Shown here: positions 11,928-62,082 of the stretch, piece by piece
How the letters are laid out: every line of letters begins with the position of its first letter
How positions within the stretch are numbered: position 1 is the first letter of the stretch
Assembly (NCBI GenBank): GCA_043801745.1
Contig: JAZDLR010000022.1
Coordinates: forward strand, 65,960-129,959
DNA from: Candidatus Komeilibacteria bacterium
Lineage (GTDB): Bacteria > Patescibacteriota > Patescibacteriia > UBA1558 > 2-01-FULL-52-15
Direction: 5' to 3'
DNA length: 64,000 bases
The notes under the pieces: model-generated
Told to the model about the DNA's origin: nothing
The model's input: the letters and a program-made list of their open reading frames with translations, nothing else
The model's database searches: none
Position numbers and translations under genes: made by a program

Positions 11928-12544
11928 TTAGAATCTATCTCCTTACGTTCTATTACCAGCGCTTTCATTATCGTCTTGCTCTTAATCACTTGTGTTAACT
12001 TCCACCCCTCAACCTTTCGGCTGAGTTCGACCTTGCTGGCCGGAAGCCAAGTGGAGCAGAGCGATAACTTATCGAAAGCGGAACAGTATTAGAACGAGTT
12101 ATTAGAGTTGCGTTCAATAGGCCAGAGGCCCACAAACACAACGGCCCGCTCGATCGTAAGATACGAGTGGGTGCAAACGTTCCCTTAATGCGCGCGCAAT
12201 AAGCACACTCTTCGACTCGTCACGCCAAAGGCGAGACTCGCTCAGAGCCACCAACCTGCACGTTTTACAGGCTGATTAGTTAAGGGACCTAGTTCCCAAC
12301 CGTGACAAAGCACCATGTAGGAACTAGAACCTTAACCAACATACTTCTTTAGCCACCCAAAGGTGACCGAGGAGGTATTTGCGCGTTAGTTATGGGAAAA
12401 CGTTTGCTGTCCCGTTTGACGGGGACGGTTTGTTAATAAACGAACATTCGCTATCCTTGATCAGTCAAGCTTTACTCGACGAACCAGAGGTTTAACGACC
12501 AATTTAAATAGGTGTTCAACCAGACCAACCGTACTGTGAAAGAA
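11928..12544 (-). other. 617-bp GC-rich ORF-free region upstream of the giant surface-protein gene: long structured 5' leader or unclassified ncRNA
   Basis: No ORF of 60 aa or more in any frame; clearly GC-richer than flanks (e.g. ggcccgctcgatcgtaag...gcgcgcgcaataagcacac); many short hairpins such as GTCCCG-ucaaa-CGGGAC. Strand assignment is by context only. Confidence 0.3.
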
Positions 12545-42242: not shown

Positions 42243-43817
42243 CTAATGAATAATTAAGCTTTTACCAGTCATATCATGAGGCTGCTCTAACTTCAATAGA
42301 TCTAAAACTGTCGGGGCAATATCGCCCAAAATACCGTTAGCCCGCAACTTCAGACGGCTTCCGGCTTTCACAATAATAAACGGCACCGGATTGGTAGAAT
42401 GCTCGGTTTCCGGCTCGCCGGTCTTGGGATCAATCACGCCTTCGGCGTTGCCATGGTCAGCAGTAATAAGACAAATGCCTTTTTTATCCAGCACTGCTTT
42501 GGTAATTTTACCCAGGGCATCATCAGTATATTCGCAAGCTTTGACCGTGGCCCAGAATTTACCTGTATGAGCAATCATATCAGCATTGGCGATATTCATG
42601 ACAATAAAATCAAACTCTCTATTGCGAATGGCGGAAAGCACCCGCGCAGATGTTTGGGCTAGACTCATCTGCGGTTGATCTTCGTAATGCTTCACATCCG
42701 GCGACATTATCATCTCCCTGACCTCGCCATTAACCGGATGATCATAACCGCCATTAAAAAAATAGGTCACATGGGCAAACTTCTCGCTTTCCGCCACAAC
42801 CAATTGGCGGTAGCCTGATAAGGCCATGGGCAAAGTATCCACGATCTCGCGGCCAGGATAAGCCGTCATCAGCTTGGGCATATCTGGTCCAAAATCCGTC
42901 ATAGCCACTAAAAATAAATTCCTAGGTTTATTCTTGGGCTTAAAAGAACCCTTATTGGCCCGCAGAAAATCGTCCTGGGCAAAGGGTTTACATAATTGAC
43001 GGGCGCGGTCAGAACGCAAATTAAAAAATACTACGGCGTCATTATTTTTTATCAGCCCTTTTGGTTGATTATCGGCAGCGACAATAACCGTGGGTTTAAT
43101 AAATTCATCACTCTCACCGCGGGCATAGGCGTGTAGCACTGCGTCTTCGGGTGTCGGCTCTTTCAATCCTCGGCCCAAGACCATAGTGTTATAGGCCATT
43201 TCTGTCCGCGACCATTCTTTCTTACGGTCCATGCCATAGAATCGACCCATGACCGTGGCCACAGTGGCGTAATTACTAAAGATGCCGTGAAAAGATTTAA
43301 ATAATTTTTGCGCGTAATAGGGCGGCGCGTCACGGCCGTCAGTAAATAAATGCAAGAAAATATTACGTACTTTCTTGCGGTTAAATAAAGTAATTAAAGA
43401 AATTAAATGATCCGGATCCGAATGAGCGCTCTGATTACCGGTAATCATACCGACTAAATGCACATCAGAATGATATTTCTGCGTCTGAGCCACTGCTCCC
43501 ATAAAGGCCGGGTTACGGAAAAAAGTGCCATTATTTATGCTCTTAGAAATCACCACCGCATCTTGCTCAACAATACGCCCGGCGCCGATATTCATGTGGC
43601 CAGCTTCAGAATTGCCTTCTTGCCCGGGCGGCAATCCGACATACTTAGAAGAAGCCCGCAAAGCCGTGTGTGAATATTTTTTTACCAGCTGATTATAATA
43701 AGGCAATTTTGCCGTAGTAATGGCATTACCTTTAATGGCCGGACCAATGCCCCAGCCATCCATGATGATCAAAACACACAACTGTTTATCCCTGCTGACC
43801 ATAAAGTTCTTTCTCAA
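42243..43817 (-). CDS. gpmI: 2,3-bisphosphoglycerate-independent phosphoglycerate mutase, divergent tandem paralog
   Basis: CVLIIMDGWGIGP and GNSEAGHMNIGAGR. Same family as the neighbour but clearly diverged. Confidence 0.85.
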   Translation of the reverse strand: MRKNFMVSRDKQLCVLIIMDGWGIGPAIKGNAITTAKLPYYNQLVKKYSHTALRASSKYVGLPPGQEGNSEAGHMNIGAGRIVEQDAVVISKSINNGTFFRNPAFMGAVAQTQKYHSDVHLVGMITGNQSAHSDPDHLISLITLFNRKKVRNIFLHLFTDGRDAPPYYAQKLFKSFHGIFSNYATVATVMGRFYGMDRKKEWSRTEMAYNTMVLGRGLKEPTPEDAVLHAYARGESDEFIKPTVIVAADNQPKGLIKNNDAVVFFNLRSDRARQLCKPFAQDDFLRANKGSFKPKNKPRNLFLVAMTDFGPDMPKLMTAYPGREIVDTLPMALSGYRQLVVAESEKFAHVTYFFNGGYDHPVNGEVREMIMSPDVKHYEDQPQMSLAQTSARVLSAIRNREFDFIVMNIANADMIAHTGKFWATVKACEYTDDALGKITKAVLDKKGICLITADHGNAEGVIDPKTGEPETEHSTNPVPFIIVKAGSRLKLRANGILGDIAPTVLDLLKLEQPHDMTGKSLIIH

Positions 43818-47659: not shown

Positions 47660-47890
47660 ACTGGAACAACAATATCTCCTTCTTCCGGCACCGGACATTC
47701 CTCGTGAGATGGATCACAAGGATCTCCTCCAGGAGGCGGTGTTTAGACTATAGTATGTTTCTTCACTCTCTGATTCGTATGATCGTAGACGTATTCAGTA
47801 TGGTCAAGTGAGCCATCCTGCTGGCCACGGGTTCGATTAATGATGGTACCGGGTCAATGGAAATTATTGGTAGCTCTAAAGGTGCGAGCT
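47660..47890 (-). pseudogene. degenerate, scrambled remnant of an Rhs C-terminal cassette (handle plus linker fragments)
   Basis: 47675-47840 aligns to the cassette handle (encodes ...DHTEYVYDHTNQRVKKHTIV*TPPPGGDPCDPSHEECP with in-frame stop and decayed 5' part). 47845-47890 matches the cassette-1 linker (compare 54270-54320). Order is reversed relative to intact cassettes. Confidence 0.5.
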
Positions 47891-48108
47891 TATATAATAT
47901 CAGCATTCTCTACTAAATCCTTCGGTAATTTTTTACTAGCACCAATAATCTCCAACCCAACTAAAATGCCGCAATCATCAAAATCTAAATTGATCATGCC
48001 ATCAATTTCTTTTGGATCACATGGATAAGTTTTTGATACTTTACCACCCGGATCCTGAAAATATATGTACGCCGCATCGACGCTCTTGTCATAACTTACT
48101 TTTATCAT
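47890..48108 (-). CDS. DUF2283 family small protein (possible immunity/antitoxin-like partner of cassette 3)
   Basis: 72 aa. MIKVSYDKSVDAAYIYFQDP...GMINLDFDDCGILVGLEI fits the DUF2283 pattern (KIxYDxEADALYIxL). Confidence 0.55.
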   Translation of the reverse strand: MIKVSYDKSVDAAYIYFQDPGGKVSKTYPCDPKEIDGMINLDFDDCGILVGLEIIGASKKLPKDLVENADII

Positions 48109-48111
48109 AAA

Positions 48112-49818
48112 TTATTTTGTTAAACTATTAATATATTTACTGGTTACATCGGTAATAACAGTTATAACGTTGCCAGTTGCTTTTTCTTGACCTATAAATA
48201 TTTTGGTCGTAGCATCATAATAACCAAGCTTTACAATGCCTTCGTGAATATACTCAAAGGGTTTAATGTTGTTTAACACATTAATTACTTTACTCTCATT
48301 ACCGATTCCAATCTTCTGAGCAATTCTAGCTACAGAATGGGTCGAAAAGTTATAATCACTCGACCTCAAATTCTGCGCCACCTGGTTCATCTTTTGACCA
48401 AGCGCCGAACCGTATTGTTGGGTATAATCGATTACATTTTTTGCATCTGCGGCTGCTGACCCACAAAATCCCAAACAACCAGTACCGGCACCTCCTAAGA
48501 ATTCAATACTCAGGTATGTTAATCCGGCAGCAGCTCCATAAGCCACTGCTCCACTCGCAACCCCAACCACTACACCAGTAGCTACCGGGTGATCCATGGC
48601 ATTCTTCCAAACACCACTAGTATCATACATCTGCTGTGCAGCTTGACCCAACTCAACCTGAAAGTCATTGAAAGATTGTCTGCCAGTAAATATTTCCTTC
48701 CACCAGTGACCATCAGGATCAACAATAATAACCGGATTATTGCGAGAGTAGGCGTAACTATTTAGAGCTTGGGGATCTGAAAGAAGTTGCTTTAGTTTAG
48801 ATCCCGTTTTCTCCTGAACTCTTTGGTCACTAGCAATTTGAAGCATGAAAGGGTCTATGCTCGCGAACCTTCCAATGGAATTGTCATAATACCTGGCTCC
48901 GAAGTACTGTAGATTAGTCTCATTATCCAACTCCTTCCCCGTAAACTTATAGTTATTGCCTATATCAGTAGTGACATTTGTGAAAGCTTCACTGCCATAA
49001 GGGTAATAATCACTTACTTCGGTTATTGTGCCGGAGCTGTCAGTTATCAAAGAACTAGAACCTAAATGATCTCCCAGAACATAGAAAATACCAATAGGTG
49101 ATCCAGAGAGATTATCCGTGGCCAGCTTTATATTACCAAGAAAGTAGTGATTCTTGGAAGAGCCATTAAACTGCGTCTCATAGTACTTATCTATGTAGTA
49201 AGTAGCTGCATCTTGTGCAGCAGGCATTGATTCAGGTTCAATGGGGGCTTGAATCCTATCGGGTGTAGATGTCGCAGTTTCTGGGGTACTGGTTGCTATT
49301 GGCTCAATAACTACAGGTAATGGTTCAATTATGGGATCAGTAATGACAGGATCGGTAGAAGTGGCAACAGAAGGAGCAAGGAGTAAGGAGTCAGCCGCCT
49401 TGTCGAGTACGACAAGTCGCGGCAAGGAAGTAAGGGAATTGTCCACGGTTTGAATGGTAACATCGGAGCTTAGAGAATCTACTGTCTCGTCCACCCCTAC
49501 TCCATTCTCCATACTATTTACTCCTAACTGATCATCAAGACTACCATCTACTGGAGTAAGCAACTTCGGCTCTGGCTTAGTAACAACCGGCTCTAACGGC
49601 ACTACAATACTCTGCTGTTCCGGAACCGGACATTCCTCGTGAGAAGGGTCACAAGGATCGCCTCCAGGAGGAGCTTCATAGATTATGGTGTGTTTCTTGA
49701 CTCTTTGATTCGTATGATCATAGACATATTCGGTGTGATCGGCTGATCCGTCCAGAGTACTTCCAGTCATGCGATCTCGCCAGTCGTAGTTTAGAGTATC
49801 GGAATTGATAAACCTCAC
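48112..49818 (-). CDS. orphan Rhs C-terminal cassette 3 (handle, linker, Rhs-core C-terminal ~170 aa, DPDG, toxin tip 3)
   Basis: Starts inside the conserved handle (MRFINSDTLNYDWRDRMTGSTLDGSADHTEYVYDHTNQRVKKHTIIYEAPPGGDPCDPSHEECPVPEQQ). Core end YFGARYYDNSIGRFASIDP...NPVIIVDPDGHW, followed by a ~200-aa tip unrelated to the other tips. Confidence 0.75.
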   Translation of the reverse strand: MRFINSDTLNYDWRDRMTGSTLDGSADHTEYVYDHTNQRVKKHTIIYEAPPGGDPCDPSHEECPVPEQQSIVVPLEPVVTKPEPKLLTPVDGSLDDQLGVNSMENGVGVDETVDSLSSDVTIQTVDNSLTSLPRLVVLDKAADSLLLAPSVATSTDPVITDPIIEPLPVVIEPIATSTPETATSTPDRIQAPIEPESMPAAQDAATYYIDKYYETQFNGSSKNHYFLGNIKLATDNLSGSPIGIFYVLGDHLGSSSLITDSSGTITEVSDYYPYGSEAFTNVTTDIGNNYKFTGKELDNETNLQYFGARYYDNSIGRFASIDPFMLQIASDQRVQEKTGSKLKQLLSDPQALNSYAYSRNNPVIIVDPDGHWWKEIFTGRQSFNDFQVELGQAAQQMYDTSGVWKNAMDHPVATGVVVGVASGAVAYGAAAGLTYLSIEFLGGAGTGCLGFCGSAAADAKNVIDYTQQYGSALGQKMNQVAQNLRSSDYNFSTHSVARIAQKIGIGNESKVINVLNNIKPFEYIHEGIVKLGYYDATTKIFIGQEKATGNVITVITDVTSKYINSLTK

Positions 49819-49889
49819 ATTACCGTTATTATCGTAGGATAAGGTGTCGGAACCGGCTGTGCGGGCTTGGTGGGGGTTATGTCAAAGAG

Positions 49890-50579
49890 CTAGTGTTTCC
49901 TTAACTTCACAAAGAACCAGATTGCTATACCTAGAATAACAAGATTAACGGTCAGTTGACCCGTTACAAATCCCAGAGAATAATCATTATTACTAGTCTG
50001 TATTTGATAAATCAGTTTCGTGAATTGCAAAATAGTGCTGGGCAAAATAGCTACAGCTACGACAATGCAAATGAATCGCCAAAATTTAGTTCCAAAGGAT
50101 TTTCTTCTATTTCTTAATCCCTTTTGTAAATTTGAGATCGCTATATCCTTTAAATCAAAAGTACTTGTACCTGATAGGAATCCCCTGAGATCAATCTTTT
50201 GAGAAAGGGCATCAATAAATCGATCTTTTGTTTCAAAATACTTATTTAGGTCTACGTCTCGACTAATTAAATCCTGTAGCTTCTTCCTTCTAACGCTAAA
50301 CTCATTTTCTCCTAAAGGAGAGCTAAGTAATAGAATATCCGCCAGTATACTTGAATCCCCCCTAAGAAACCTAACCGCCTCATCTCTACTCTTTGCGACT
50401 GCAAAAGTTTGATTATTATTTTCAATAAAATCTTCTTGGATACGAATCGTGACATCTCTAAATTCGTTTGGCCACCCAGACAATATTTGCCAGAAGGTTT
50501 TTTTATCAATATTCGGTTCTTTATCCAAAATATCAATAATTATCTTGAGACATTCCGCTTTTGCATTATCAAAGGTCAT
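49890..50579 (-). CDS. putative immunity protein for tip 2 (C-terminal membrane anchor)
   Basis: 229 aa. C-terminal 70 aa (FGTKFWRFICIVVAVAILPSTILQFTKLIYQIQTSNNDYSLGFVTGQLTVNLVILGIAIWFFVKLRKH) homologous to the C-terminus of 52384..52995. Position immediately downstream of cassette 2. Confidence 0.55.
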   Translation of the reverse strand: MTFDNAKAECLKIIIDILDKEPNIDKKTFWQILSGWPNEFRDVTIRIQEDFIENNNQTFAVAKSRDEAVRFLRGDSSILADILLLSSPLGENEFSVRRKKLQDLISRDVDLNKYFETKDRFIDALSQKIDLRGFLSGTSTFDLKDIAISNLQKGLRNRRKSFGTKFWRFICIVVAVAILPSTILQFTKLIYQIQTSNNDYSLGFVTGQLTVNLVILGIAIWFFVKLRKH

Positions 50580-50581
50580 AT

Positions 50582-52264
50582 CTATTTACCTTTAAGCTTA
50601 TTAAACAAATCACTTAATGTAAAATGATGGAGATTCACTGGTATATTTTTGCCAAGAATATTCATGCTAAAATCTGCATCGACATGGAATGTTTTGGCGC
50701 CACCATCAGTAAACGCATGGCGGTCAAGACTAATTACTCGCTGTTTAGCTAAATTGCCCGGCTTCTCAAGATCACGCAAGATCAAACCGCCACCGCCACC
50801 CTTATAGGGATCTGCCGCCAGCTGATACCTTTCTCCTGTAAACTTTAAACCTTGACTGTCAAGTTGGGTAGTAATCTTACTAGATTTCGATACTCCTTCA
50901 GCGATAAGGAAAGTGTCAAACGCAGCACCGCCTACCGCCTGTCCCTGGGTGTAGTCGTCAGCCGCAAGAAATTCTTTAGCTTGCATAGCGAGACCGGTGC
51001 GTATCTCTCCAATAGTCTGGTTCGGATTCTGAGCGATATCGTGCGATAATTGGCTACCCTGCTTATAACCTTCTGCCACTAAATTACCTATTGACTTTGC
51101 CGTATCAATAGGATGAGTAATGGCGACACCAGTCTGATATGCTCTAACTGCGGCTCCGACTAATAATCCCTTGCCAAAATCCACGTCTGTATTCCCATCC
51201 GGATCCACCAATACTATCGGGTTTCCTCTACTATAAAGATAGCTATGTAATCTCTGCGGATCAGACAGAACTTTGGTCAGTTTATTTACATTGAGATTGT
51301 AAGGATCAATACTGGTAAAATAACCAGCGGTTTGATTATAATACCTGGCGCCAAAATAGGAAAGGTTGGTTTCGGTATCTAGTTCTTTACCGGTATACTT
51401 ATGATTATCACCAATGTTGGTCGTGGTATTGCTATAGGATATCGTTCCATACGGATAATAATCAGTTGTATCAATAATCTGACCACTGGTGTCAGTAGTT
51501 ATAGAGCTCGATCCCAAATGATCCGAGAGATCATAATAAATACCTGTATTAGAGCCATTTAGGACATCTGTGGCAAGTTTAATATTACCCAGGAAGTAGA
51601 AATTACGAGCAGCTCCGCTATATTCTTTTTCATAATACTTATCAATATAATAGGTGGCACTATCTTCGCTGGCAGGAATAGAGTTTAATTCAATAGGAAT
51701 CTGTAGTCTATCCGGAGTTGAGGTGGCTTCAGTATCATCTAATGGAGGTAATACTATATCGTCAGTACTAGTAGCAATAATCTCGGGCGTTGAGGTGGCT
51801 AGCGGATCGGGCAAGATAATAATATCTGGGGTAGTAGTAGCTAACGGCTCAACTAACGGTGTTACTGGGTCAATAGTAATTAGTGGAACTTCAATACGCT
51901 GCTCGTCAGAAGGCAAATCTGATGCCTCGTCCCCATCTGATACTGCTTCGGTTTTAATACTTTGCGCCACAACCTCTCCAACCCCTAACTCCTTACTTCC
52001 AACTTCTAACTCCTGATTTATCCCATCATCAAGACTACCGTCGATTGGAATCGGTAGCTTGGGATCAGGCGTTTCAACAATCGGCTCAACCGGTACAACA
52101 ATACTCTGCTGCTCTGGCACCGGACATTCTTCGTGAGACGGATCACAAGGGTCACCTCCCGGAGGCGGTGTATAGACAATCGTGTGTTTCTTAACTCTCT
52201 GATTCGTATGATCATAGACGTATTCGGTATGATCGGCCGAGCCGTCCAGAGTACTGCCAGTCAT
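50582..52264 (-). CDS. orphan Rhs C-terminal cassette 2
   Basis: Begins MTGSTLDGSADHTEYVYDHTNQRVKKHTIVYTPPPGGDPCDPSHEECPVPEQQ. Core end NPIVLVDPDGNT. Tip (HPIDTAKSIGNLVAEGYKQG...NPNQTIGEIRTGL...) is homologous to tip 1. Confidence 0.75.
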   Translation of the reverse strand: MTGSTLDGSADHTEYVYDHTNQRVKKHTIVYTPPPGGDPCDPSHEECPVPEQQSIVVPVEPIVETPDPKLPIPIDGSLDDGINQELEVGSKELGVGEVVAQSIKTEAVSDGDEASDLPSDEQRIEVPLITIDPVTPLVEPLATTTPDIIILPDPLATSTPEIIATSTDDIVLPPLDDTEATSTPDRLQIPIELNSIPASEDSATYYIDKYYEKEYSGAARNFYFLGNIKLATDVLNGSNTGIYYDLSDHLGSSSITTDTSGQIIDTTDYYPYGTISYSNTTTNIGDNHKYTGKELDTETNLSYFGARYYNQTAGYFTSIDPYNLNVNKLTKVLSDPQRLHSYLYSRGNPIVLVDPDGNTDVDFGKGLLVGAAVRAYQTGVAITHPIDTAKSIGNLVAEGYKQGSQLSHDIAQNPNQTIGEIRTGLAMQAKEFLAADDYTQGQAVGGAAFDTFLIAEGVSKSSKITTQLDSQGLKFTGERYQLAADPYKGGGGGLILRDLEKPGNLAKQRVISLDRHAFTDGGAKTFHVDADFSMNILGKNIPVNLHHFTLSDLFNKLKGK

Positions 52265-52383
52265 CAGGTCGCGCCAGTCGTAATTTAAGGTATCGGAATT
52301 GATAAACCGAACGTTACCGTTATTATCATAAGATAAGGTGTCAGAACCGGCTGTGCGGGCTTGGTGGGGGTTATGTCAAAAAA

Positions 52384-52995
52384 CTAGTGTTTCTTTAATT
52401 TCACAAAGAACCAGATTGCTAATCCAATAATAACCAGATTAACGGAAAGTTGACCCGTTGCAAATCCGAGGGAATAATCATTATCGCTTTTCTGAATTAA
52501 ATATGTCAGTTTAAATAATTGCAAAATTGTACTAGGCAATATAGCTACAACTACAACAACACAAATAAATCGCCAAAATTTAATTCCAAAAGATTTCCCT
52601 TTCGATTTTAACAAATGGTCCGTGTTATTTGCTAATTCAGGATCCTCAAGAGCTTGTTTAAGTAACGTTTTGAACTCATCGTATGAGTCAAATAATTGAT
52701 CAAAAAAATTAGATCCATTGATTATCCTGATGATTTTTTTTCTAAGTTTAAGATATTGACTCCTGTCAAGCTGGTCGGATTCATCCAATATAAAATATTC
52801 AGCTAAAATTTCCGGGGTTTTTCCCAATAGATTGATATCCTGAAGCTCGACTTGATTGATCAATTCGGTCAAATCTGCTTTTACTGAATTATCAATATCC
52901 AATCTAAATAAATCCTCAAATAAATTTGCAGAATTAATATCTCTTGATTTAATTACAGAAAGAAGCCATTCTTTAAATTTTTTCACATCACTCAT
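52384..52995 (-). CDS. putative immunity protein for tip 1 (C-terminal membrane anchor)
   Basis: 203 aa; C-terminal FGIKFWRFICVVVVVAILPSTILQLFKLTYLIQKSDNDYSLGFATGQLSVNLVIIGLAIWFFVKLKKH. Confidence 0.55.
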   Translation of the reverse strand: MSDVKKFKEWLLSVIKSRDINSANLFEDLFRLDIDNSVKADLTELINQVELQDINLLGKTPEILAEYFILDESDQLDRSQYLKLRKKIIRIINGSNFFDQLFDSYDEFKTLLKQALEDPELANNTDHLLKSKGKSFGIKFWRFICVVVVVAILPSTILQLFKLTYLIQKSDNDYSLGFATGQLSVNLVIIGLAIWFFVKLKKH

Positions 52996-52996
52996 A

Positions 52997-54739
52997 TTAT
53001 TTTTTTAACAATTTATCAATCACTCCCCAAGGAAAGTGGTTAACAATTTTGTTGCCATTTAATAATAGGTCAAGATGAGGCAAAGGCAGCTGAATACTTC
53101 CAACGGGAACATTATGGACATCAGCTCCTAAAACTCTAGTCTTATAATAATTACCTTTTACCTCAAAATCTCTGAGCGATACCCCTGCTCCCTTTGCCCC
53201 TTTAAATAAATCTCCACTCACTCCAAATCTTTCACCCTTTAAACCGACGGAGGCTCCTTGCTTATAAGCCTGAATGTCTCCCGATTTTTCGATTCCTTTT
53301 GCCATTAGGGCTGCATTACCGACAACATTTCCAACAGCCAACCCTTTCTCATAATCCGATTTATCCATGAATTCGTTATAATTCATGTTTAAGCCCGCCC
53401 TTATCTCTCCGAATGTCTGGCTGGGATTCGCAGCTATGTCACGTCCAAGAGAAACAGCACCCTCAACTCCGGCTTTAAGAGTATTACCGACGGATTTTGC
53501 TGTATTAATTGGATGCACTATTGATTCAACCGTTCCAACTCCAAAATTAACTACAGCCTGTCCGACACCTATTGAATATCCACCTAGGTATTCCACAGGG
53601 GTATTTCCATCCGGATCCACCAATACTACTGGATTCCCCCTGCTATAAAGATAACTATGTAATCTCTGGGGATCAGACAGAACCTTGGTCAGTTTATCCA
53701 CATTGAGATTGTAAGAATCAATACTGGTAAAATAACCAGCGGTTTGATTATAATACCTGGCGCCGAAATAGGAAAGGTTAGTCTCACCATCGAGCTCTTT
53801 ACCGGTATATTTATGATTATCACCAATGTTGGTCGTGGTATTGCTATAGGATATCGTCCCATACGGATAATAATCAGTTGTACCAGTAATCTGGCCACTA
53901 GTGTCAGTGGTTAGAGAACTCGATCCTAGGTGATCCGAGAGATCATAATAAATACCTGTATTAGAGCCATTTAGTACGTCCGTGGCTAGTTTAATATTCC
54001 CCAAGAAGTAAAAGTTTCGAGAAGCTCCGTTATATTCCTTTTCATAGTACTTATCTATGTAGTAAGTAGCCGTATCCTGCACGGCTGGCATTGAATTCAG
54101 CTCAATAGGAGTTTGAATTCTGTCTGTCGTAGATGTGGCTTCCGTATCATCTAATGGAGGTAATACTATATCATCAGTACTGGTAGCTATATCCTCTATT
54201 GGGGATTCTATTATTTCTGGGGTAGTCGTAGTAATGGTATCTGGAGTGGAACTAGCCACAGGCTCAATCAATGATGGTACTGGGTCAATGAAAATTGTAG
54301 GTAGCTCTAAAGGCGCAGGATCCTCAATAGTACCTACCTCATCTCCGGACTCATCTACAGCATCCGCCACCTGAACAGTCTGTGCTTCAACACTTTCTCC
54401 TTGCTCCATACTTCCTACTCCTGACTGATCATCAAGACTACCATCTACCGGAGTAAGTAACTTCGGTTCTGGCTTAGTAACAACCGGCTCTAACGGCACT
54501 ATAATAGTCTGCTGTTCAGGTACTGGACACTCTTCATGAGATGGGTCACAAGGGTCACCTCCCGGAGGCGGTGTATAGACAATCGTGTGTTTCTTAACTC
54601 TCTGATTCGTATGATCATAGACATATTCTGTGTGATCGGCCGAGCCGTCCAGAGTACTGCCAGTCATCCGGTCGCGCCAGTCGTAATTTAGAGTATCGGA
54701 ATTGATAAACCTTACGTTACCGTTATTATCATATGACAA
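52997..54739 (-). CDS. orphan Rhs C-terminal cassette 1
   Basis: Begins MSYDNNGNVRFINSDTLNYDWRDRMTGSTLDGSADHTEYVYDHTNQRVKKHTIVYTPPPGGDPCDPSHEECPVPEQQ. Core end NPVVLVDPDGNT. Tip HPINTAKSVGNTLKAGVEGAVSLGRDIAANPSQTFGEIRAGL... Confidence 0.75.
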   Translation of the reverse strand: MSYDNNGNVRFINSDTLNYDWRDRMTGSTLDGSADHTEYVYDHTNQRVKKHTIVYTPPPGGDPCDPSHEECPVPEQQTIIVPLEPVVTKPEPKLLTPVDGSLDDQSGVGSMEQGESVEAQTVQVADAVDESGDEVGTIEDPAPLELPTIFIDPVPSLIEPVASSTPDTITTTTPEIIESPIEDIATSTDDIVLPPLDDTEATSTTDRIQTPIELNSMPAVQDTATYYIDKYYEKEYNGASRNFYFLGNIKLATDVLNGSNTGIYYDLSDHLGSSSLTTDTSGQITGTTDYYPYGTISYSNTTTNIGDNHKYTGKELDGETNLSYFGARYYNQTAGYFTSIDSYNLNVDKLTKVLSDPQRLHSYLYSRGNPVVLVDPDGNTPVEYLGGYSIGVGQAVVNFGVGTVESIVHPINTAKSVGNTLKAGVEGAVSLGRDIAANPSQTFGEIRAGLNMNYNEFMDKSDYEKGLAVGNVVGNAALMAKGIEKSGDIQAYKQGASVGLKGERFGVSGDLFKGAKGAGVSLRDFEVKGNYYKTRVLGADVHNVPVGSIQLPLPHLDLLLNGNKIVNHFPWGVIDKLLKK

Positions 54740-54784
54740 GGTGTCAGAACCGGCTGTGCGGGCTTGGTGGGGGTTATGTCAAAG

Positions 54785-54884
54785 AACTAGCGTTTCCTTA
54801 ACTTCACAAAGAACCAAATTGCTAATCCAATGATCACAACATTGACTGTAAATTCGCCAATTATTAATCCCGGTACTGAATCGG
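54785..54884 (-). pseudogene. remnant of the TM-anchored immunity gene C-terminus
   Basis: Minus strand encodes ...GLIIGEFTVNVVIIGLAIWFFVKLRK*, matching the last ~25 aa of the 203/229-aa immunity proteins, followed by the handle sequence. No upstream ORF body. Confidence 0.4.
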
Positions 54885-55184
54885 TCAATTTTGATAGACC
54901 AAAACTCCATAATCTCTATCAGATTTCATACTATCAATAATCTGGTTGACAACAAAACTATCATTTTCTTCAAACTCAACCTCTGATTCAACATGGGTCA
55001 GAACCTCAGTTTGAGTAACATATAAATCCTCCAGTTCTTCTTCGCTCAGAGTCTCAGTTACAATAACATTATATGTAAGTGTTTTATCCTTATAGGTAAA
55101 ATAAATTTTTAGAATCTTCAAACTTAATCTAGAAGATGTAAAGACATATTCAATGGCGCCTTTCAGTCTAGTGATTGGGTTCAT
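54885..55184 (-). CDS. putative cognate immunity protein of the main Rhs toxin tip
   Basis: 99 aa, acidic (EEELEDLYVTQTEVLTHVESEVEFEEND); starts 5 nt after the Rhs stop. Assignment is by position only. Confidence 0.45.
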   Translation of the reverse strand: MNPITRLKGAIEYVFTSSRLSLKILKIYFTYKDKTLTYNVIVTETLSEEELEDLYVTQTEVLTHVESEVEFEENDSFVVNQIIDSMKSDRDYGVLVYQN

Positions 55185-55189
55185 ATTAA

Positions 55190-58100
55190 TTACTTAAGAA
55201 GTTTAAATGGCTTAGATGGCACAAGGTGCGTCCCTGTTTTACTGAAATGAATAGTACCTCTGGTTGTATCGAATAATTTTCCCGTTTTATCGTCGATGTA
55301 CTTACCAATAGTTTCACCGAAATCAATCGTTTCTTTCCATAGCTTTCCCTGATTAAATATTTTTTGACCCTTACCGGCGAATTCATTAATTAGTTTTTGT
55401 GGGTTAGTGTGGGTCACAATACTTTTGCCAACCTCATATGATTCCCCAAGTGCATGCTTAGCTTGCTTTGTAGCATCTATCGTCAGATTCAGTCCCTTAG
55501 TAGCCCCCTTAGCTAGGTCGTCAGCGTGTTTAGCTACAAACCCCGCCCCCTCTTTACTTCCTTTCCCATATCCACCTCCAGGTAGTGCTAATCCTAGGGC
55601 TACGCCACCAACAGACAACGCCTTGTCTGAATTTGATGAATTGGGATTGGCTAATGTGTTAGCAGTATCGTAATAATCATACATTGTTAATCCAACCTCG
55701 ACAACTCCCCAGGCAATTAGAATTAATGGGATAATTTTTCCATCGGGATCTACGTATCGGATAGGATTATTGACCGAATAAGCATAAGAGTTGAGATTCT
55801 GGGGATTCTGGAGATGAATCGCTAACGGTCTACCTGCGCTTTCCTTAAATTGCGCCTCATTACCCAACTCAAATAAGATCGTATCAATACTATTAAATCG
55901 TCCTATTTCCTGATTATAGTAACGTGCTCCAAAGTAAGATAGGTTAGTCTCACCATCGAGCTCTTTACCGGTATATTTATGATTATCACCAATGTTGATC
56001 GTGGTATTACTATAGGATATGGTTCCGTAGGGATAATAATCAGTTGTATCAATAATCTGGCCACTAGTGTCAGTAGTTAAAGAGCTTGATCCTAAATGAT
56101 CCGAGAGATCATAATAAATCCCAGTATTAGGGTCATTTAGGACATCTGTGGCTAATTTAATATTGCCCAGAAAGTAGAAATTACGAGCAGCTCCGCTATA
56201 TTCTTTTTCATAGTACTTATCTATATAGTAGGTAGCACTATCCTCGCTAGCCGGAATAGAGTTTAATTCAATAGGAATCTGGAGTCTATCTGAAGTAGAG
56301 GTAGCTTCGGTATCATCAATAGGTGGCAATACAATATCATCAGTACTGGTAGCGATAATCTCGGGCGTTGAGGTGGCCAGGGGCTCGGGTAAGATAATAA
56401 TATCTGGGGTCGTAGTAGCTAACGGCTCAAATTCGGGTAAGACAGGATCGGTAGTAACTAGTAGCACATCAAGCCGCTGATCATCAACAGTAATATTTGC
56501 GTCTGATTCAGCTGAACCGTCTTCAACCTTTATACTTTGCGCAGCAACCTCCCCACCCAAGGTATCTATATTAGGATCTATTAACTCTACATCAGGCACT
56601 TTAGGATTATTCACTTCCTCCTCTGATGTTGGTTCTAAAGGTACTACGATACTCTGTTGTTCGGGTAAGGGACATTCTTCGTGAGACGGATCACAGGGGT
56701 CGCCTCCTGGAGGAGCTTCGTAGATAATAGTGTGTTTCTTGACTCTTTGATTCGTGTGATCATAGACATATTCCGTGTGATCAGCTGATCCGTCCAGAGT
56801 ACTGCCAGTCATACGGTCGCGCCAGTCGTAGTTTAAAGTATCGGAATTGATAAACCTCACATTACCGTTATTATCATAGGATAAGGTTTTATCTCCGGCT
56901 GTGCGGGCTTGGTGGGGGTTGTTTAAAGTATAAGTGTAGTCCCCGACTCCGGTCTGCGATAAGATATTGCCAATGCTGTCATAAGTGAAACTACGGGTGT
57001 AATTAGTATTACTGGCGGAATTAGTAACAGTTACTGAAAGCAAACGATTCAAATCGTCATAACTATAACTGACATTTTTCGCCAACTGCGTGGCCGAAGT
57101 ATCGATCAAAGTTAAAATATTTCCATTCGGATCATAGATGTAAGCAATATCCTGTAAAACTCGGGAGCCCTTCACACTATGAATACGGGTCAGACGATAA
57201 TTCTGGCTCGCGTCATAAGTATAATCAGTAACAATTCCATTGCCGCGCTCCAAGTGCGCCACCTGACCCATCGGAGAATAAGTAACATTCTGCGCTAAAA
57301 CAGTGGTCTGACTATTTTTAACTTTATTCACCTGACTAACCTGTCCAGCCGAATTGTAAAGATAATCAACGCGCTCGCCTTCAGGATAAGTAATTGATGT
57401 CACGTTGCCGTTCCAGTCGTAGGTATAAGTTAAGACATAACTATTGCCGTCAATCATTCGGGTAACTGTCAGCGGCTTGCCCTGCGGATCATAAGTATAG
57501 ACCGTAGTTAAACCGTCACTGCCAACCACGCGGGTCAATCGACCCAGCTGTCCACTACCCTGATCATAAGTCAGCGTATACTCTGTTCCTGTCTGAGCAG
57601 TGAAGTTCTCGGTTAATAGCCGGTTCAGAGCGTCATAAGTATAATTCGTGGTCTGATACTTCGGATCTCGTTTGTTTAGAACGTTGCCGTTCTTATCATA
57701 AGTATAGGTCCAGTGCATCGGATTACTGACGCTGGCTTTATGCACCATATCCTGTTGCGTCAGATTATCCAAAGCGTCATAAGTAAAGTTACGGATGTTT
57801 CCTTGGCTGTCAGTAATTTTCCTCAGCTTATTGGTTAAAGTATATTCATAATTAGTCGTGTAGATCGAACTGCTGTTAAACTCCTCCACTTTCACCAAAT
57901 TGCCAAACGCATCGTTGGTCAATTTCTTGATCTTGCCCCGCGGATCAGTAATCGTAGTGGTCAAACCATCATAAGCATAACTAGTAGTGCCAGTTAAGAT
58001 GACTTCGGATAATTTACGGTTTAGACTGTCATAAGTGGTGACTTTCGCGTTCGTGAAGCTGGGACTGGAATTATAGGCATTTGAAGATGTAAACACTGGC

Positions 58101-61100
58101 AAGGATTCGCGGTTGACGCGGTCCTGACTGTCATAAGCGGTATAGGAAGTAACATATTGCCCGCTGACATCAGAACGCGAACTTTGGATCACCCGGCCTA
58201 AACCGTCATAGTATTCGCGGGAAGTAACATAATGACCCGTGCTAAAATAATCTTTAACTTCTTTATAGTTCGGAAAATTGGCGTCCTGATAAATTATCTC
58301 CTGTTTTGTAATCAAATTAGCCGCGTTAGCCGGATCAGACACCTCTTTCTTGATCAACCGGCTAAAAGCATCATAAGTATTTTTCTCCTGATAACCATTA
58401 GGATCACGGGAATATAATAATTGTCCGCTTACTGGGTCGTATTCAGTGACAGTCACGCGGCCCAAAGCATCAGTGGTCGTGGACACGAATAAATGCAGGG
58501 GTTCATAAGCTAAAGTTACCGCGGTATTTTCTTTCGGATCTTTCTTAGTCAACGGCAAGCCAAAACTGTCGTAAGTGGTTTCAATGTCAACGGTATTGAC
58601 TTTCAAATCTTCTTTCGTGACATTAGCGCGGTCGATCTGTCCTAAAGCTAACTGGTCGTAATACAGATCCTGATCTTTGGTCTCACCAATACCGGAAACT
58701 ACTTTTGTTTTAGGTGCACCAACAATATACTTTTGACTGTTAGTAGCATAAGCGTAAGTAGTAGTTTTCTCATCGCCAGTCAGCTGATCAATAATATCAC
58801 CACTACCGGTATTAGCAGTAACCTGACCAAGATTTTGTTCTTCCGTGACATTACCCAGAGCGTCATATTCGTAAGTTGTGGCCTGTGATTTGGCTGCTGT
58901 TCCGAAAATAGTTTGCGTGCCGCGCTCAACGAAAGAAAAAATTCTGTTGTCTGGCAAATTCACCGCATTAACCTTACTAACATTTTGCTGTAATAATTGT
59001 CCGCTAGCATTACGAATCTCCTGTCTGAACGGCTGACCTATTTTGGCATAGCTATCCTGATATTCTCCCATAGCCGACCCGTCCAATCCTCCACCCTGAT
59101 GATAATAAGTCGTTATCAGGCTGTCGCTTTCAGCTTTGGTAACCTTACCAAAACCCACAAACCTATTCTGTTTAATATTACTACCGACATAGTAACTACC
59201 GTCCTCATAGCTATAATTTACTGTTTGCTGGTTACCCAATCCATCGTTATAGTCAATTTCCGACACAACCGGCACATTAACGATTGACCGCGGATTCAAA
59301 AGTTGCTGATTCTCATCTTTCAATTGAGCCGAGGCAGCATAGTCAGCGCTAACAATGGTCTGATCCAGCCGTTTAATACTTCGCAGCTTTTGCCAATCAG
59401 CCGGTTGATTAAGAGTACGAACCGAATTTTCCTGCTCTTCATAAACATACTCAGTTTTATAGGAGGTATTATAGCTTGGCATCAGGCTACCGGTAGCATC
59501 AAATAAACGGAATCTGGAATTATAATCTAAACGTTTATTATCTCCCGTGTATTCACCAAAAATAAACGGTATTTGGTAACTGGTATCAATATTCCATTGC
59601 CCATTTCCGCTGTTAATATAAACATTTTTTATGTCTGAATTATTTTGCCAATAATCATGGTAGGACTCAACAAAGTCCGCCAAACCATCAGCGTTTATAT
59701 CCAAAATTTTGAATCTAAAACCATAATCATTCAATACTTGTGTAGTGGTATAATAGGAAAAATCCAGCGGAATGATCCAGGAAGTATCCAAATCCCAACC
59801 ACTCTTACCATTATTAATATAAACAGCCTTCTGATGGGTATTAATCGCCTGATCATACTGTGAATACATTAAATCTGGTAAACCATCACCATTAACATCG
59901 GCCACTCTATATTCGCTCTGACGGTCACTAATTTCATTACTGGAAGCGTGATAAGTAGCAAAATATACAGGTACGGTCCAATTAGTATCAAGGTTCCAAC
60001 CATTAATCCCGTTATTCAAATAGACATGCTGAATATGAGTAGCGGCATTATCATCACGGTATGATTCCACAAAATCAGCCAAGCCATCACCATTAATATC
60101 GGTAAAAATAAACTCCGGTGTATAAACCATCTGTTCACTACCACTAGAAGCATAATTGGCAAAATTTAAAGGTACAATCCAGCCAGTTGCCAATGTCCAG
60201 CCGTTAATACCATTATTCAAATAAACCTGTTGTACTGGAACATTTTCCACGGAATATGACACGACAAAATCTTCCCGCGAATCACCATTAACGTCACCAA
60301 CAACAAATCTGCTTTGATAATTCCAAATCGGCCAGCTACAAGTATCATAACGAAAGGCAAAATCAAATGGTAACTGCCAATCAGAAGTTGTTGCCCAGCC
60401 ATTAACGCCATTATTTATGTATGTTTTCTGATAAATATTTTCCGGACAATCTTGATTACTATGCAACAAGTCGGTCAATGAATCGCCATTAACATCCAAG
60501 GGCAAAAAGGCAAAAGTACCGCGTTGTGAAACATTTGAAACGTCTATAGACTCAAACCTAAAAGGCAGCTGATAATTACCATCAGTGATCCACTCTTTAG
60601 ACGAAGTACCATAATCAAAATCCGTAGCCGGCAGATATTCCCAGCCACTACCATTATTGCCCGCTTCTTTGACACGGCTAATCATTGTCTGGCCTGCTTC
60701 ACCAGCTATAGTCTCTAAATCATATTTCTTCTTAGCCACACCGTTTACCAAAACTTGAATAGTATTAATGGCATATTTGGTAGTCACAGAAAAACCCGCC
60801 TCCTGACTATTGGATATATCCGGTCGTGTACTAATGGGACCAGAATAAATCGGATCAAATATAATTCTATACGGCCCGTCAACGGTGCCATTACCAGTAT
60901 AATATATCGCTTTCGGATAAATAGCGCCGGAATCTTTCCAATACTCGTAGCGCAAAAAATTATCATTGGTGTCACGGATTTCGGCTAAATACCAGCGGTA
61001 AATTTTGCCGGCATCAGCCTGGTCGTTTTGACGGCTGGCACTATCGGAACCAAAAGTATATACAGTACCGGTCTTATCTGTAACTTTCCAAGTCTTGTCA

Positions 61101-61798
61101 GTAAGCCACTCAATTTTATAAAACTGACTTTCCACTTCAACTCCATAAGTACCGTAGCCATCTTGGTCAACAGATAGCGGCAGCAAATTGCCGCCACCCG
61201 GTAAACTTAAAACAAAATCAAAATTGGTATAACGTTTTTCCGTTCCTTGCCGACCCGAACGCTCAATAAAAGGGCTATCTAAGTCCCAACCCAAACCATA
61301 AAACGAATCCTTATTATTACGCTGACTATTATAGGTCAAGGCCAAAGAAGGCTGTAAGCCATTACGGCCCTTAGGAATGTCTAGAGAGTAGTTATAACTA
61401 AAAGCGCCAGTGGATTCAACAACTTGCGCTTGATCATTTTTCCCGATTGCGAATTTATTTGGGTTCTTGGCGGCAAAAAAATCATTACCAGCATTTGGCA
61501 CTTCACTGCCGTCACCACTCGCCTGCTCACTGGTTTCCGGAACAATCGGCGGTAAAGAGCTTTCAATAGTCTGCTTCTGGTCCTGACTAATGTTACTGTC
61601 AGACGCGTCAGTCGCTGTGTCAGCTAACAAAAAAGCACTCTTATTTTCTGGAGTGCCGGCATTAGTGACATTTACTTTACTGGCTGCCAAAACTGGCATC
61701 AATGGCATGCCAACCGTAGTGACGATTAAAAATATAATAACTATTCTGCCAAGCCCGAGATTAGCTCTCAACATATATTTATCATGATTTATAAACAA
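55190..61798 (-). CDS. Rhs/YD-repeat polymorphic toxin (2202 aa) with N-terminal FG-GAP-like repeats and C-terminal variable toxin domain
   Basis: Signal peptide (likely true start Met at 61772-61774: MLRANLGLGRIVIIFLIVTTVGMPLMPVLAA; ORF-track start is TTG). FG-GAP-like DINGDGLADFV, DVNGDGLPDL, DINADGLADFV. Many YD repeats (YTYDALGNV, YDAFSRL, YYDGLGRV, YTAYDSQDRV, YAYDGLTTTITDPRGK). Rhs core ...YFGARYYNQEIGRFNSIDT...NPIRYVDPDGK, then a ~190-aa tip. Confidence 0.9.
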   Translation of the reverse strand: MFINHDKYMLRANLGLGRIVIIFLIVTTVGMPLMPVLAASKVNVTNAGTPENKSAFLLADTATDASDSNISQDQKQTIESSLPPIVPETSEQASGDGSEVPNAGNDFFAAKNPNKFAIGKNDQAQVVESTGAFSYNYSLDIPKGRNGLQPSLALTYNSQRNNKDSFYGLGWDLDSPFIERSGRQGTEKRYTNFDFVLSLPGGGNLLPLSVDQDGYGTYGVEVESQFYKIEWLTDKTWKVTDKTGTVYTFGSDSASRQNDQADAGKIYRWYLAEIRDTNDNFLRYEYWKDSGAIYPKAIYYTGNGTVDGPYRIIFDPIYSGPISTRPDISNSQEAGFSVTTKYAINTIQVLVNGVAKKKYDLETIAGEAGQTMISRVKEAGNNGSGWEYLPATDFDYGTSSKEWITDGNYQLPFRFESIDVSNVSQRGTFAFLPLDVNGDSLTDLLHSNQDCPENIYQKTYINNGVNGWATTSDWQLPFDFAFRYDTCSWPIWNYQSRFVVGDVNGDSREDFVVSYSVENVPVQQVYLNNGINGWTLATGWIVPLNFANYASSGSEQMVYTPEFIFTDINGDGLADFVESYRDDNAATHIQHVYLNNGINGWNLDTNWTVPVYFATYHASSNEISDRQSEYRVADVNGDGLPDLMYSQYDQAINTHQKAVYINNGKSGWDLDTSWIIPLDFSYYTTTQVLNDYGFRFKILDINADGLADFVESYHDYWQNNSDIKNVYINSGNGQWNIDTSYQIPFIFGEYTGDNKRLDYNSRFRLFDATGSLMPSYNTSYKTEYVYEEQENSVRTLNQPADWQKLRSIKRLDQTIVSADYAASAQLKDENQQLLNPRSIVNVPVVSEIDYNDGLGNQQTVNYSYEDGSYYVGSNIKQNRFVGFGKVTKAESDSLITTYYHQGGGLDGSAMGEYQDSYAKIGQPFRQEIRNASGQLLQQNVSKVNAVNLPDNRIFSFVERGTQTIFGTAAKSQATTYEYDALGNVTEEQNLGQVTANTGSGDIIDQLTGDEKTTTYAYATNSQKYIVGAPKTKVVSGIGETKDQDLYYDQLALGQIDRANVTKEDLKVNTVDIETTYDSFGLPLTKKDPKENTAVTLAYEPLHLFVSTTTDALGRVTVTEYDPVSGQLLYSRDPNGYQEKNTYDAFSRLIKKEVSDPANAANLITKQEIIYQDANFPNYKEVKDYFSTGHYVTSREYYDGLGRVIQSSRSDVSGQYVTSYTAYDSQDRVNRESLPVFTSSNAYNSSPSFTNAKVTTYDSLNRKLSEVILTGTTSYAYDGLTTTITDPRGKIKKLTNDAFGNLVKVEEFNSSSIYTTNYEYTLTNKLRKITDSQGNIRNFTYDALDNLTQQDMVHKASVSNPMHWTYTYDKNGNVLNKRDPKYQTTNYTYDALNRLLTENFTAQTGTEYTLTYDQGSGQLGRLTRVVGSDGLTTVYTYDPQGKPLTVTRMIDGNSYVLTYTYDWNGNVTSITYPEGERVDYLYNSAGQVSQVNKVKNSQTTVLAQNVTYSPMGQVAHLERGNGIVTDYTYDASQNYRLTRIHSVKGSRVLQDIAYIYDPNGNILTLIDTSATQLAKNVSYSYDDLNRLLSVTVTNSASNTNYTRSFTYDSIGNILSQTGVGDYTYTLNNPHQARTAGDKTLSYDNNGNVRFINSDTLNYDWRDRMTGSTLDGSADHTEYVYDHTNQRVKKHTIIYEAPPGGDPCDPSHEECPLPEQQSIVVPLEPTSEEEVNNPKVPDVELIDPNIDTLGGEVAAQSIKVEDGSAESDANITVDDQRLDVLLVTTDPVLPEFEPLATTTPDIIILPEPLATSTPEIIATSTDDIVLPPIDDTEATSTSDRLQIPIELNSIPASEDSATYYIDKYYEKEYSGAARNFYFLGNIKLATDVLNDPNTGIYYDLSDHLGSSSLTTDTSGQIIDTTDYYPYGTISYSNTTINIGDNHKYTGKELDGETNLSYFGARYYNQEIGRFNSIDTILFELGNEAQFKESAGRPLAIHLQNPQNLNSYAYSVNNPIRYVDPDGKIIPLILIAWGVVEVGLTMYDYYDTANTLANPNSSNSDKALSVGGVALGLALPGGGYGKGSKEGAGFVAKHADDLAKGATKGLNLTIDATKQAKHALGESYEVGKSIVTHTNPQKLINEFAGKGQKIFNQGKLWKETIDFGETIGKYIDDKTGKLFDTTRGTIHFSKTGTHLVPSKPFKLLK

Positions 61799-62082
61799 AA
61801 TTAGTGTCGGCTATGAAAACCGACGGCTGTTTTATTTTGGCTAACTTTATGTTTGTTTGACCGTTGAAGGTAAAACTTAGGGTGAAAAGCGACGGCTGTT
61901 ATTTCAATGGACGGCCTTTATTAACTTGATTTTAGCAAACTGTAGCGCCATGTCAAACCTATTTGAAGTCCTTTGCTTCTAACAGGGTCAATCCCGTCAA
62001 ATGACCGCAACGGTGCGAATGATATGGTCAATAATAGACAATTGAAGTTGTTATTTTTTAAATAGACATATATCCTATATAT

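Follow-up and report, generated by a model that had tools for sequence, protein, structure and literature searches.

Organisation of the rhs locus

The window analysed here, a 64-kb stretch (64,000 nt) of contig JAZDLR010000022.1 from a metagenome-assembled genome (MAG) labelled Candidatus Komeilibacteria, contains an Rhs/YD-repeat polymorphic toxin locus. It consists of a full-length gene for a protein with the features of a secreted one and, downstream on the same strand, three orphan cassettes, each with an Rhs core and each followed by a small gene. A reading made earlier from the sequence alone had proposed such a locus, and domain matches and shared repeats bear it out. We consider it probable that the locus encodes a Sec-exported, TcB/TcC-like Rhs polymorphic toxin with swappable orphan tips. 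Eight consecutive open reading frames (ORFs) on the minus strand form the locus; all of them agree with the description in the sequence-only reading (lengths in amino acids, aa):

55190..61798, minus strand: main rhs gene, 2202 aa from a TTG start (ORF list, Pfam/TIGR matches)
54885..55184, minus strand: 99-aa gene, candidate Ntox50 immunity gene
52997..54739, minus strand: cassette 1 as called, 580 aa from the TTG at 54739
52384..52995, minus strand: 203-aa gene, cassette-1 immunity candidate
50582..52264, minus strand: cassette 2 as called, 560 aa
49890..50579, minus strand: 229-aa gene, cassette-2 immunity candidate, paralogue of the 203-aa gene
48112..49818, minus strand: cassette 3 as called, 568 aa
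47890..48108, minus strand: 72-aa DUF2283 gene (PF10049)

As had been predicted, profile searches of the main protein matched the RHS repeat, the Rhs core and FG-GAP, all far above chance. RHS_repeat (PF05593) was matched in six stretches (E=6e-33), and there were further matches to YD_repeat_2x (TIGR01643, E=1.9e-19), Rhs_assc_core (TIGR03696, E=5e-17, residues 1921-2020), SpvB (PF03534, E=8.5e-16) and FG-GAP (E=1.4e-9). The closest solved relatives are TcdB2-TccC3 fusions (E=1.7e-19), and the protein has no Pfam match to a PAAR/VgrG-linked or LXG/WXG N-terminus. From the promoter region to the end of the coding sequence, the main gene comprises the following elements:

61929..61956, minus strand: sigma70-like promoter match, TTGACA-16-TAAAAT with TG (consensus match only)
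60929..61414, minus strand: SpvB/TcB-N-like domain, residues 129-290 (PF03534, E=8.5e-16)
59519..60541, minus strand: FG-GAP beta-propeller, approximately residues 420-760 (PF01839 and PF13517; boundaries approximate)
56726..58501, minus strand: YD/RHS-repeat shell, approximately residues 1100-1691 (PF05593, TIGR01643)
56726..56920, minus strand: 5' recombination anchor, the last YD repeats (NPHQARTAG...YDNNGNV...RVKKHTI), common to all cassettes
56231..56725, minus strand: acidic insert rich in P, E, D and T, 165 aa, between the last YD repeat and the core, mosaic among copies
55739..56230, minus strand: Rhs core (YYIDKYYE...VDPDG; TIGR03696, local core hidden Markov model E=4e-94)
55481..55738, minus strand: N-module of the tip, 86 aa, hydrophobic and Gly-rich
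55217..55480, minus strand: Ntox50 toxin domain (PF15542, E=4e-23)

The promoter match, about 130 nt upstream of the main gene, is the top sigma70-like site of the 15-kb region. A hydrophobic segment occupies residues 8-40, and the likelier start is the ATG at codon 9, which gives the signal-peptide-like N-terminus MLRANLGLGRIVIIFLIV...VLAAS. In the FG-GAP region the motif D-x-N-G-D-x-x-x-D is repeated (direct repeats D5) with invariant DxNGD columns. The Asp motifs of the autoprotease, GRFxSID and VDPDG, are kept in all four copies of the core at the locus.

The orphan cassettes and their acidic insert

Each of the three cassettes gave a TIGR03696 core match above the cutoff (E=1e-14 to 1e-19). 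Cassette 1 is annotated at NCBI as an RHS repeat-associated core domain-containing protein, which the Prokaryotic Genome Annotation Pipeline (PGAP) calls as 556 aa from an internal ATG. The open frames of the cassettes are longer than the called genes:

52997..54778, minus strand: orphan cassette 1, open frame from 54778; core 53606-54064, tip 53000-53605
53000..53605, minus strand: cassette-1 tip, with N-module 53282-53605 and toxin domain 53000-53281
50582..52375, minus strand: orphan cassette 2, open frame from 52375; core 51194-51652, tip 50585-51193
48112..49881, minus strand: orphan cassette 3, open frame from 49881; core 48709-49200
48115..48708, minus strand: cassette-3 tip, with N-module 48448-48708 and toxin domain 48115-48447

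The segment of about 60 aa that had been described as common to the cassettes and the main gene is a genuine DNA repeat (families D1-D3) with four good copies, 85-95% identical. The ORFs had been said to restart inside this segment. The segment is indeed shared, but the homology begins upstream of the called starts: similarity to the main gene opens directly after a stop codon ('*HNPHQARTAGSDTLSYDNNGNV', corresponding to 'NNPHQARTAGDKTLSYDNNGNV' in the main gene). Consensus matching across the 15-kb region found no promoter-like site comparable to that of the main gene before any cassette, and the orphan cassettes have no signal peptide. The cassettes would accordingly be described, as far as their sequences go, as promoterless and leaderless units of anchor, acidic linker, complete core, tip and putative immunity gene.

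The acidic insert is the one structural oddity of the locus. In its four copies it measures 161-175 aa, has an isoelectric point (pI) of 4.1, is rich in P, E, D, T and I, and carries degenerate ATSTP(E/D)II-like repeats with a Cys pair at the base. The same position holds 3-12 aa in relatives and 46-71 aa in L001, an ENA metagenome contig that encodes the protein P0011 and represents a moderately related orthologous locus; this comparison of lengths takes in only relatives with reliable alignments and ignores late-starting core alignments. Long antisense ORFs at 51654-52016 and 54135-54374 are by-products of the low-complexity sequence of the insert.

The resident tip and the two-part structure of the tips

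The tip that follows DPDG in the main protein had been given as 190 aa; it measures 182 aa. It had also been stated that none of the tips contains a recognisable motif and that there are four distinct ones. Neither statement held: the main tip is Ntox50, cassette 3 encodes a DUF4258-like toxin of the BECR fold, and the tips of cassettes 1 and 2 are paralogous, which leaves three tip families. The suggestion that the tips represent uncharacterised toxin families still applies to the cassette-1/2 family, which is unassigned, but not to the main and cassette-3 tips, which can be assigned.

Ntox50 was matched over the whole profile (positions 1-92) with a score of 82.4 bits against a Pfam cutoff of 22.2. 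The HxVP motif described for this family (PMC3482391) is present in the main tip as THLVP. Among solved structures, the toxin domain is related to the C-terminal domain of YxiD (YxiD-CTD, E=2.5e-12), a metal-dependent tRNase of the BECR fold (PMC12700104), and to MafB2 (E=2.6e-9). By homology, the resident tip can be placed in the Ntox50 family of BECR RNases, and the resident toxin is probably a tRNase. The 99-aa gene follows the main gene with a spacing of 3 nt; its product is acidic (pI 4.4) and has no family or PDB match in the Pfam and PDB searches.

The four toxin domains of the locus have basic pI values (9.1-9.6), the four partner domains acidic ones (4.4-5.1). A basic toxin with an acidic partner is the usual pattern among nuclease toxins and their inhibitors. 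Each tip is built of two parts, a delivery-type N-module, which may serve delivery or entry, and a toxin domain. The N-module of cassettes 1 and 2 is found elsewhere in fusions with barnase-type Ribonuclease (in three proteins), Colicin-DNase, WHH, HNH and DUF4258, and these fusions mark it as a generic module that precedes or delivers nucleases with a cytoplasmic site of action. In P0006-P0008 the N-module of cassette 3 is followed by different C-terminal domains. Because a main-type N-module is combined with a cassette-3-type toxin in a further protein, P0044, N-modules and toxin domains evidently recombine independently of each other.

The cassette-3 toxin and DUF2283

The tip of cassette 3 is bipartite as well, with a Gly-rich hydrophobic N-module of about 87 aa followed by a toxin domain of 111 aa. 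The whole tip is rare: only 8 relatives were found in 5.8 billion clusters, and a profile of the toxin domain gave 9 matches, mostly new members; no Pfam domain was found in any of these proteins. Distant members of the family lie near DUF4258 (PF14076). P0047 scores 24.4 bits against a cutoff of 25 (E=3.6e-5), and P0046 and P0049 also touch the DUF4258 model. The link between cassette 3 and DUF4258 is only transitive, because the match runs through these three proteins. AlphaFold modelled the toxin domain with confidence (pLDDT 92.8, pTM 0.83); the domain has the BECR fold and a DUF2283 partner. DUF4258 itself has been assigned to the BECR/RelE-ParE superfamily (PMC11980606) and, according to a preprint, overlaps Ntox49 in the colicin-like branch (bioRxiv 10.64898/2026.08.28.747851). 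We conclude that the cassette-3 toxin is a divergent DUF4258/Ntox49-like domain of the BECR fold, with a presumptive RNase activity.

The 72-aa protein behind cassette 3 matches DUF2283 (PF10049, E=1.2e-11); a PDB search with it was empty. DUF2283 lies directly downstream of cassette-3-type toxins in the window, in L002-L004, in L005 and in L006, that is, in four of four independent loci, and this co-occurrence identifies it as the cognate partner of the toxin. It is best regarded as the immunity or antitoxin partner, with neutralisation as its predicted function. The pairing of tips and small genes proposed by the sequence-only reading finds support in co-occurrence, for cassette 3 and DUF2283 in these four loci and for cassettes 1 and 2 and the 203/229-aa family in the window, L001 and L088.

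In L001 a DUF2283 gene (11896-12123) is 79% identical to that of the window (47890-48108), and no cassette-3-type toxin precedes it. It stands there behind an EndoU orphan and two other small genes, an arrangement that had suggested that DUF2283 might be a mere conserved gene at the end of the locus; the idea was dropped, as DUF2283 follows cassette-3-type toxins in three further contexts. The L001 copy looks like an orphan immunity gene, which is the better reading, or else like the outcome of an exchange of cassette content between lineages.

The cassette-1/2 tips and the 203/229-aa genes

The tips of cassettes 1 and 2 share 41% identity over 164 aa. A word-indexed homology search with the cassette-1 tip returned no relatives; an exhaustive profile search with the cassette-1/2 tip returned 34 proteins. 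Most of these match only its first 100 aa or so, and a few carry the whole tip, including the full-length Rhs proteins P0011, P0021 and P0024 (2,000-2,400 aa). The toxin domain, about 95 aa long, has invariant residues G139, G141, R145, R157, D162 and H164 and the motifs LPH[IL][DH] and H[FI]PW. A His-Me (beta-beta-alpha) reading of the C-terminus, which its predicted secondary structure and conserved His residues had suggested, found no supporting match and was dropped. PDB profile searches and PADLOC were likewise empty for the unassigned tips and the small genes. The cassette-1/2 toxin is probably a nuclease that acts in the cytoplasm.

The 203- and 229-aa proteins are 45% identical to each other, with a nearly identical C-terminal transmembrane (TM) hairpin; in the 203-aa protein the hairpin follows an acidic soluble domain. 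The soluble domain recurs behind cassette-1/2-type tips in L001 (121 aa, E=3e-13) and in L088 (133 aa, E=1e-12). L001 encodes the hairpin in an ORF of its own (76 aa) and L088 lacks it, so that it counts as accessory. Both immunity candidates in the window are predicted to be membrane-tethered. The hairpin region (52384-52560, 49890-50060 and 54788-54884) is near-identical between copies and abuts the anchor of the next cassette. It may owe its upkeep by gene conversion to a role as right-hand anchor in recombination, not to an immunity function.

L088 (positions 1-2619) contains a cassette-2-like tip and behind it, in this order, the 133-aa homologue of the soluble domain of the 229-aa protein, a Barstar gene and another Rhs core fragment. 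It is a small mixed array of immunity genes and orphans from an unrelated metagenome.

Probable traces of past tip exchange

Two further features of the locus are fragments of cassettes:

54788..54884, minus strand: immunity-gene scar, the last 100 nt or so of a gene of the 203/229 family including its stop (VNVVIIGLAIWFFVKLRKR*)
47663..47885, minus strand: remnant of a fourth cassette after the 72-aa gene, an anchor piece and a linker piece with in-frame stops

The scar sits between the 99-aa gene and cassette 1. Because of it, every cassette is preceded by the same junction, where the anchor follows the 3' end and stop codon of an immunity gene. The remnant contains a degenerate fifth copy of the anchor, which explains why the sequence-only reading had set the beginning of the locus at 47660.

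Sequence identity among the copies varies in a mosaic fashion. Between about 56459 and about 55930 the main gene stays close to cassette 2 (80-93% identity); near 55925, where its Rhs core reads 'GARYYNQ', identity to cassettes 1 and 2 falls abruptly to background. Identity between cassettes 1 and 2 is 86-98% throughout the core as far as DPDG and 40-60% in the tips beyond it. For cassettes 1 and 3 it reaches 89-92% over the opening portion of the linker. The segment with Ntox50 and the 99-aa gene is unique, and the scar follows it directly. As a historical inference, this pattern would fit a double crossover by which an older pair of cassette-1/2-type tip and immunity gene was replaced by Ntox50 and the 99-aa gene. 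The left exchange would have fallen within the Rhs core, the right exchange within an immunity-gene 3' end.

L001 provides a comparison. Its NUDIX protein is 39% identical to that of the window and its shell 45-70%. Behind its main gene, which has a cassette-1/2-type tip, come a split immunity gene, an orphan with an EndoU tip, two small genes and DUF2283. Taken together, the remnant, the scar, the mosaic and the L001 tip point to tip replacement in the past.

Proposed mode of action

The following model best accounts for the locus. A protein composed of signal peptide, SpvB-like domain, FG-GAP propeller and YD shell would be exported via Sec. The Asp motifs of the Rhs core (GRFxSID..., VDPDG) would cleave off the tip, which the shell would encapsulate. 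After delivery to a neighbouring cell, in which the hydrophobic or helical N-module may mediate delivery or entry, the small basic domain would act as the toxin. The tip expressed at present would be the Ntox50 RNase, with the acidic 99-aa protein giving immunity. Homologous recombination could then fuse an orphan tip to the expressed gene. Crossing over would take place on the left within the anchor or core that the copies share, and on the right within the conserved immunity-gene 3' end. In this way the toxin would change while the retained immunity genes still protected the cell. Switching of Rhs orphans has been shown experimentally in Salmonella (PMC3967940), and orphan rhs modules are well described (PMC3150448).

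Several observations weigh against parts of this model. No TcA, type VI secretion system (T6SS) or type VII secretion system (T7SS) genes were found among the neighbours scanned in the 64-kb window, and hence no delivery partner by which the shell might reach a target and open on it. The metagenome scan returned no close relatives (identity at most 35%) in which switching might be seen. The contig belongs to a MAG, so that assembly errors in the repeat region are conceivable. As to the individual toxins, the cassette-1/2 toxin domain gave no match to Pfam, to PDB sequences or by fold, and its model is weak (overall pLDDT 53.5), and the cassette-3 tip does not match DUF4258 (PF14076) even at E<=10. 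As to their partners, the genes downstream of the most distant cassette-1/2-type tip, in L087, are not detectably related to the 203/229 family, and the 99-aa protein is presumed to be the immunity protein for Ntox50 from its position, spacing and charge only.

The main protein might instead be a teneurin-like surface adhesin of an episymbiont, or the toxins might be aimed at a host bacterium in order to obtain nutrients. The organism is labelled as a member of the candidate phyla radiation (CPR), cultivated members of which are epibionts (PMC13622651), and the protein is predicted to be exported with no injection machinery nearby. Moreover, BECR RNases hit universally conserved targets, and the tRNase YxiD has a broad range of substrates (PMC12700104). 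Immunity genes and orphan arrays are, however, characteristic of conflict among close relatives (PMC3482391, PMC3967940), and the same architecture is widespread in free-living phyla; the sequence, for its part, identifies no target organism. We regard this explanation as unlikely.

A different proposal would be that the cassettes are expressed alone from internal starts, for which the conserved ATG at MTGSTLDG is a candidate, and work as intracellular toxin-antitoxin (TA) modules in growth control or phage defence. All cassettes have intact frames with possible starts, PGAP annotates them as genes, and a family of type II TA pairs (DUF4258; PMC11980606) has the pairing of cassette-3 toxin and DUF2283 as a relative. 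There is also a precedent, proposed for the orphan Rhs of Salmonella (PMC7043789). Against this stand the want of a good promoter-like site before any cassette and the homology to the main gene, which begins after the stop and upstream of the possible starts. A complete core and a delivery-type N-module are useful only when fused to the shell, and the scars and the mosaicism indicate exchange with the main gene. We regard the proposal as rather improbable.

A more speculative idea, to which we give little credence, goes beyond tip exchange and concerns the acidic insert with its Cys clamp. The insert (160-175 aa) is lineage-specific, is mosaic between copies and lies inside the module that would be swapped. 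It could be a surface element that is matched to the toxin of its cassette and exchanged along with it, combined with a new toxin fold in cassettes 1 and 2 and membrane-tethered immunity, in an episymbiotic CPR bacterium without TcA, T6SS or T7SS. If this were true, a single recombination would alter the display on the shell, and with it targeting or gating, together with the cargo.

That the tandem array is an assembly artefact, in which strain variants of one rhs 3' end were concatenated, is highly improbable: the source is a MAG and repeats 85-98% identical over hundreds of bases are error-prone for short-read assemblers, but each unit has its own tip and immunity gene, the junctions are specific, consistent and seen three times, a scar and a degenerate remnant are not expected from collapse or concatenation, the independent contig L001 is laid out alike, with main gene, immunity gene, orphan and DUF2283, and two or more cores occur in 11 of 56 related loci.

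Comparison with known systems and distribution

The locus resembles the orphan rhs-CT/rhsI loci of enterobacteria (Salmonella LT2, E. coli and Dickeya; PMC3967940, PMC3150448), in which promoterless, leaderless 3' fragments lie on the same strand as the main gene. Shared core sequence with differing tips, mosaicism and scars are further points in common, as are an immunity gene behind each tip and activation by recombination, both of them putative here. Enterobacterial Rhs proteins have a T6SS-type, PAAR/VgrG-linked N-terminus, in contrast to the apparent Sec export and the SpvB and FG-GAP domains found here. Unlike the enterobacterial orphans, the cassettes keep a complete core, an upstream YD anchor and the acidic insert of 160-175 aa; the homology on the right-hand side comes from a conserved immunity-gene 3' end, and the host is a CPR bacterium.

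The main protein has SpvB, FG-GAP, an RHS shell, a predicted core protease and a variable C-terminus, predicted to be encapsulated, in the same order as the TcB-TcC cocoon of Tc toxins (TcdB2-TccC3, PDB 4o9x and 6h6e). It differs in being a single polypeptide with no TcA translocator among the genes scanned in the window. Moreover, TcB-TcC delivers ADP-ribosyltransferases aimed at eukaryotes, whereas the tips here are taken to be RNase domains of the antibacterial type with adjacent putative immunity genes. The resident toxin domain belongs to the same family (PF15542) as those of YxiD from B. subtilis, which is of the LXG/T7SS type, and MafB2 from Neisseria; here an Rhs shell takes the place of LXG or MafB-N, and the 99-aa protein matches no solved chain. 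With its BECR fold and constant DUF2283 partner, cassette 3 is like the type II TA pairs of DUF4258 (Ntox49-like) and DUF2283. Unlike a stand-alone DUF4258 toxin, the cassette-3 domain forms the C-terminal end of an Rhs cassette, where a delivery module precedes it, and is too divergent for direct detection by the Pfam model.

A large secreted Rhs/YD toxin of 2487 aa with an immunity gene has also been described from a CPR genome, in Saccharibacteria (PMC6031116). That protein differs in its domains of the PA14 and galactose-binding types, and its description mentions no orphan array. The sequence-only reading had called the arsenal conspicuous in a streamlined genome. This is a fair description, with the qualification that an Rhs/YD toxin and its immunity gene had already been noted in the CPR.

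A scan of genome representatives found the SpvB-FG-GAP-Rhs architecture to be widespread. The best relatives (33-35% identity) include MAGs of Saccharibacteria, Staskawiczbacteria and Peregrinibacteria as well as archaea (Methanoperedens, Pacearchaeota), and others come from Myxococcota, Bacteroidota, Verrucomicrobiota and further groups. Full-length homologues from archaeal MAGs (L008, L017, L023 and L024, with 27-35% identity, from Methanoperedens, Pacearchaeota, Methanosarcinales and Micrarchaeota) are among the closest relatives of the main protein. Loci with more than one core are not confined to the window: the count of 11 in 56, which covers the fetched loci that have a core, includes a Sorangium locus with four cores and a groundwater contig with three.

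The locus leaves the concept of Rhs function unchanged, and the kind of system is already known. Its value lies in documenting, for a CPR bacterium of reduced genome, a polymorphic-toxin arsenal that is complete and evolving, with footprints of cassette exchange at the sequence level; these recombination scars are unusually legible. It also offers three leads. The first is the rare cassette-1/2 toxin family, to which neither a family nor a fold could be assigned, with its membrane-tethered partner. The second is evidence that an Rhs system has taken a type II TA-like pair (DUF4258-like/DUF2283) into service as a warhead, which supports DUF2283 as a neutralising partner. The third is the set of three pre-toxin N-modules that shuffle independently and are candidate entry domains for organisms without an outer membrane.

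Genomic context

Seven proteins of the window are identical in sequence to NCBI entries MFH0874183-195, which come from a contig of 131 kb, and the label of their MAG, Candidatus Komeilibacteria, supports the CPR affiliation; the host had been recognised as a CPR-type organism from the letters alone. The arsenal, of about 14 kb, takes up roughly a fifth of the window. Its G+C content (48001-62000) is 0.39-0.43, and that of most of the window 0.43-0.52; the lower value is consistent with an accessory or exchanged region.

The neighbouring genes are housekeeping genes, for phosphoglycerate kinase (PGK), enolase, two 2,3-bisphosphoglycerate-independent phosphoglycerate mutases (iPGM), SIMPL, MFS and NUDIX proteins; a dcw-like cluster and envelope glycosyltransferases are also nearby. 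Three other ORFs in the window, of 1247 aa (8184-11927, minus strand), 698 aa (30894-32990, plus strand) and 643 aa (6018-7949, minus strand), gave no Pfam match at E<=0.001. The two iPGM genes are tandem paralogues on the minus strand (40655-42241 and 42243-43817) beside those for enolase and PGK, a duplication that is unexpected for a reduced genome.

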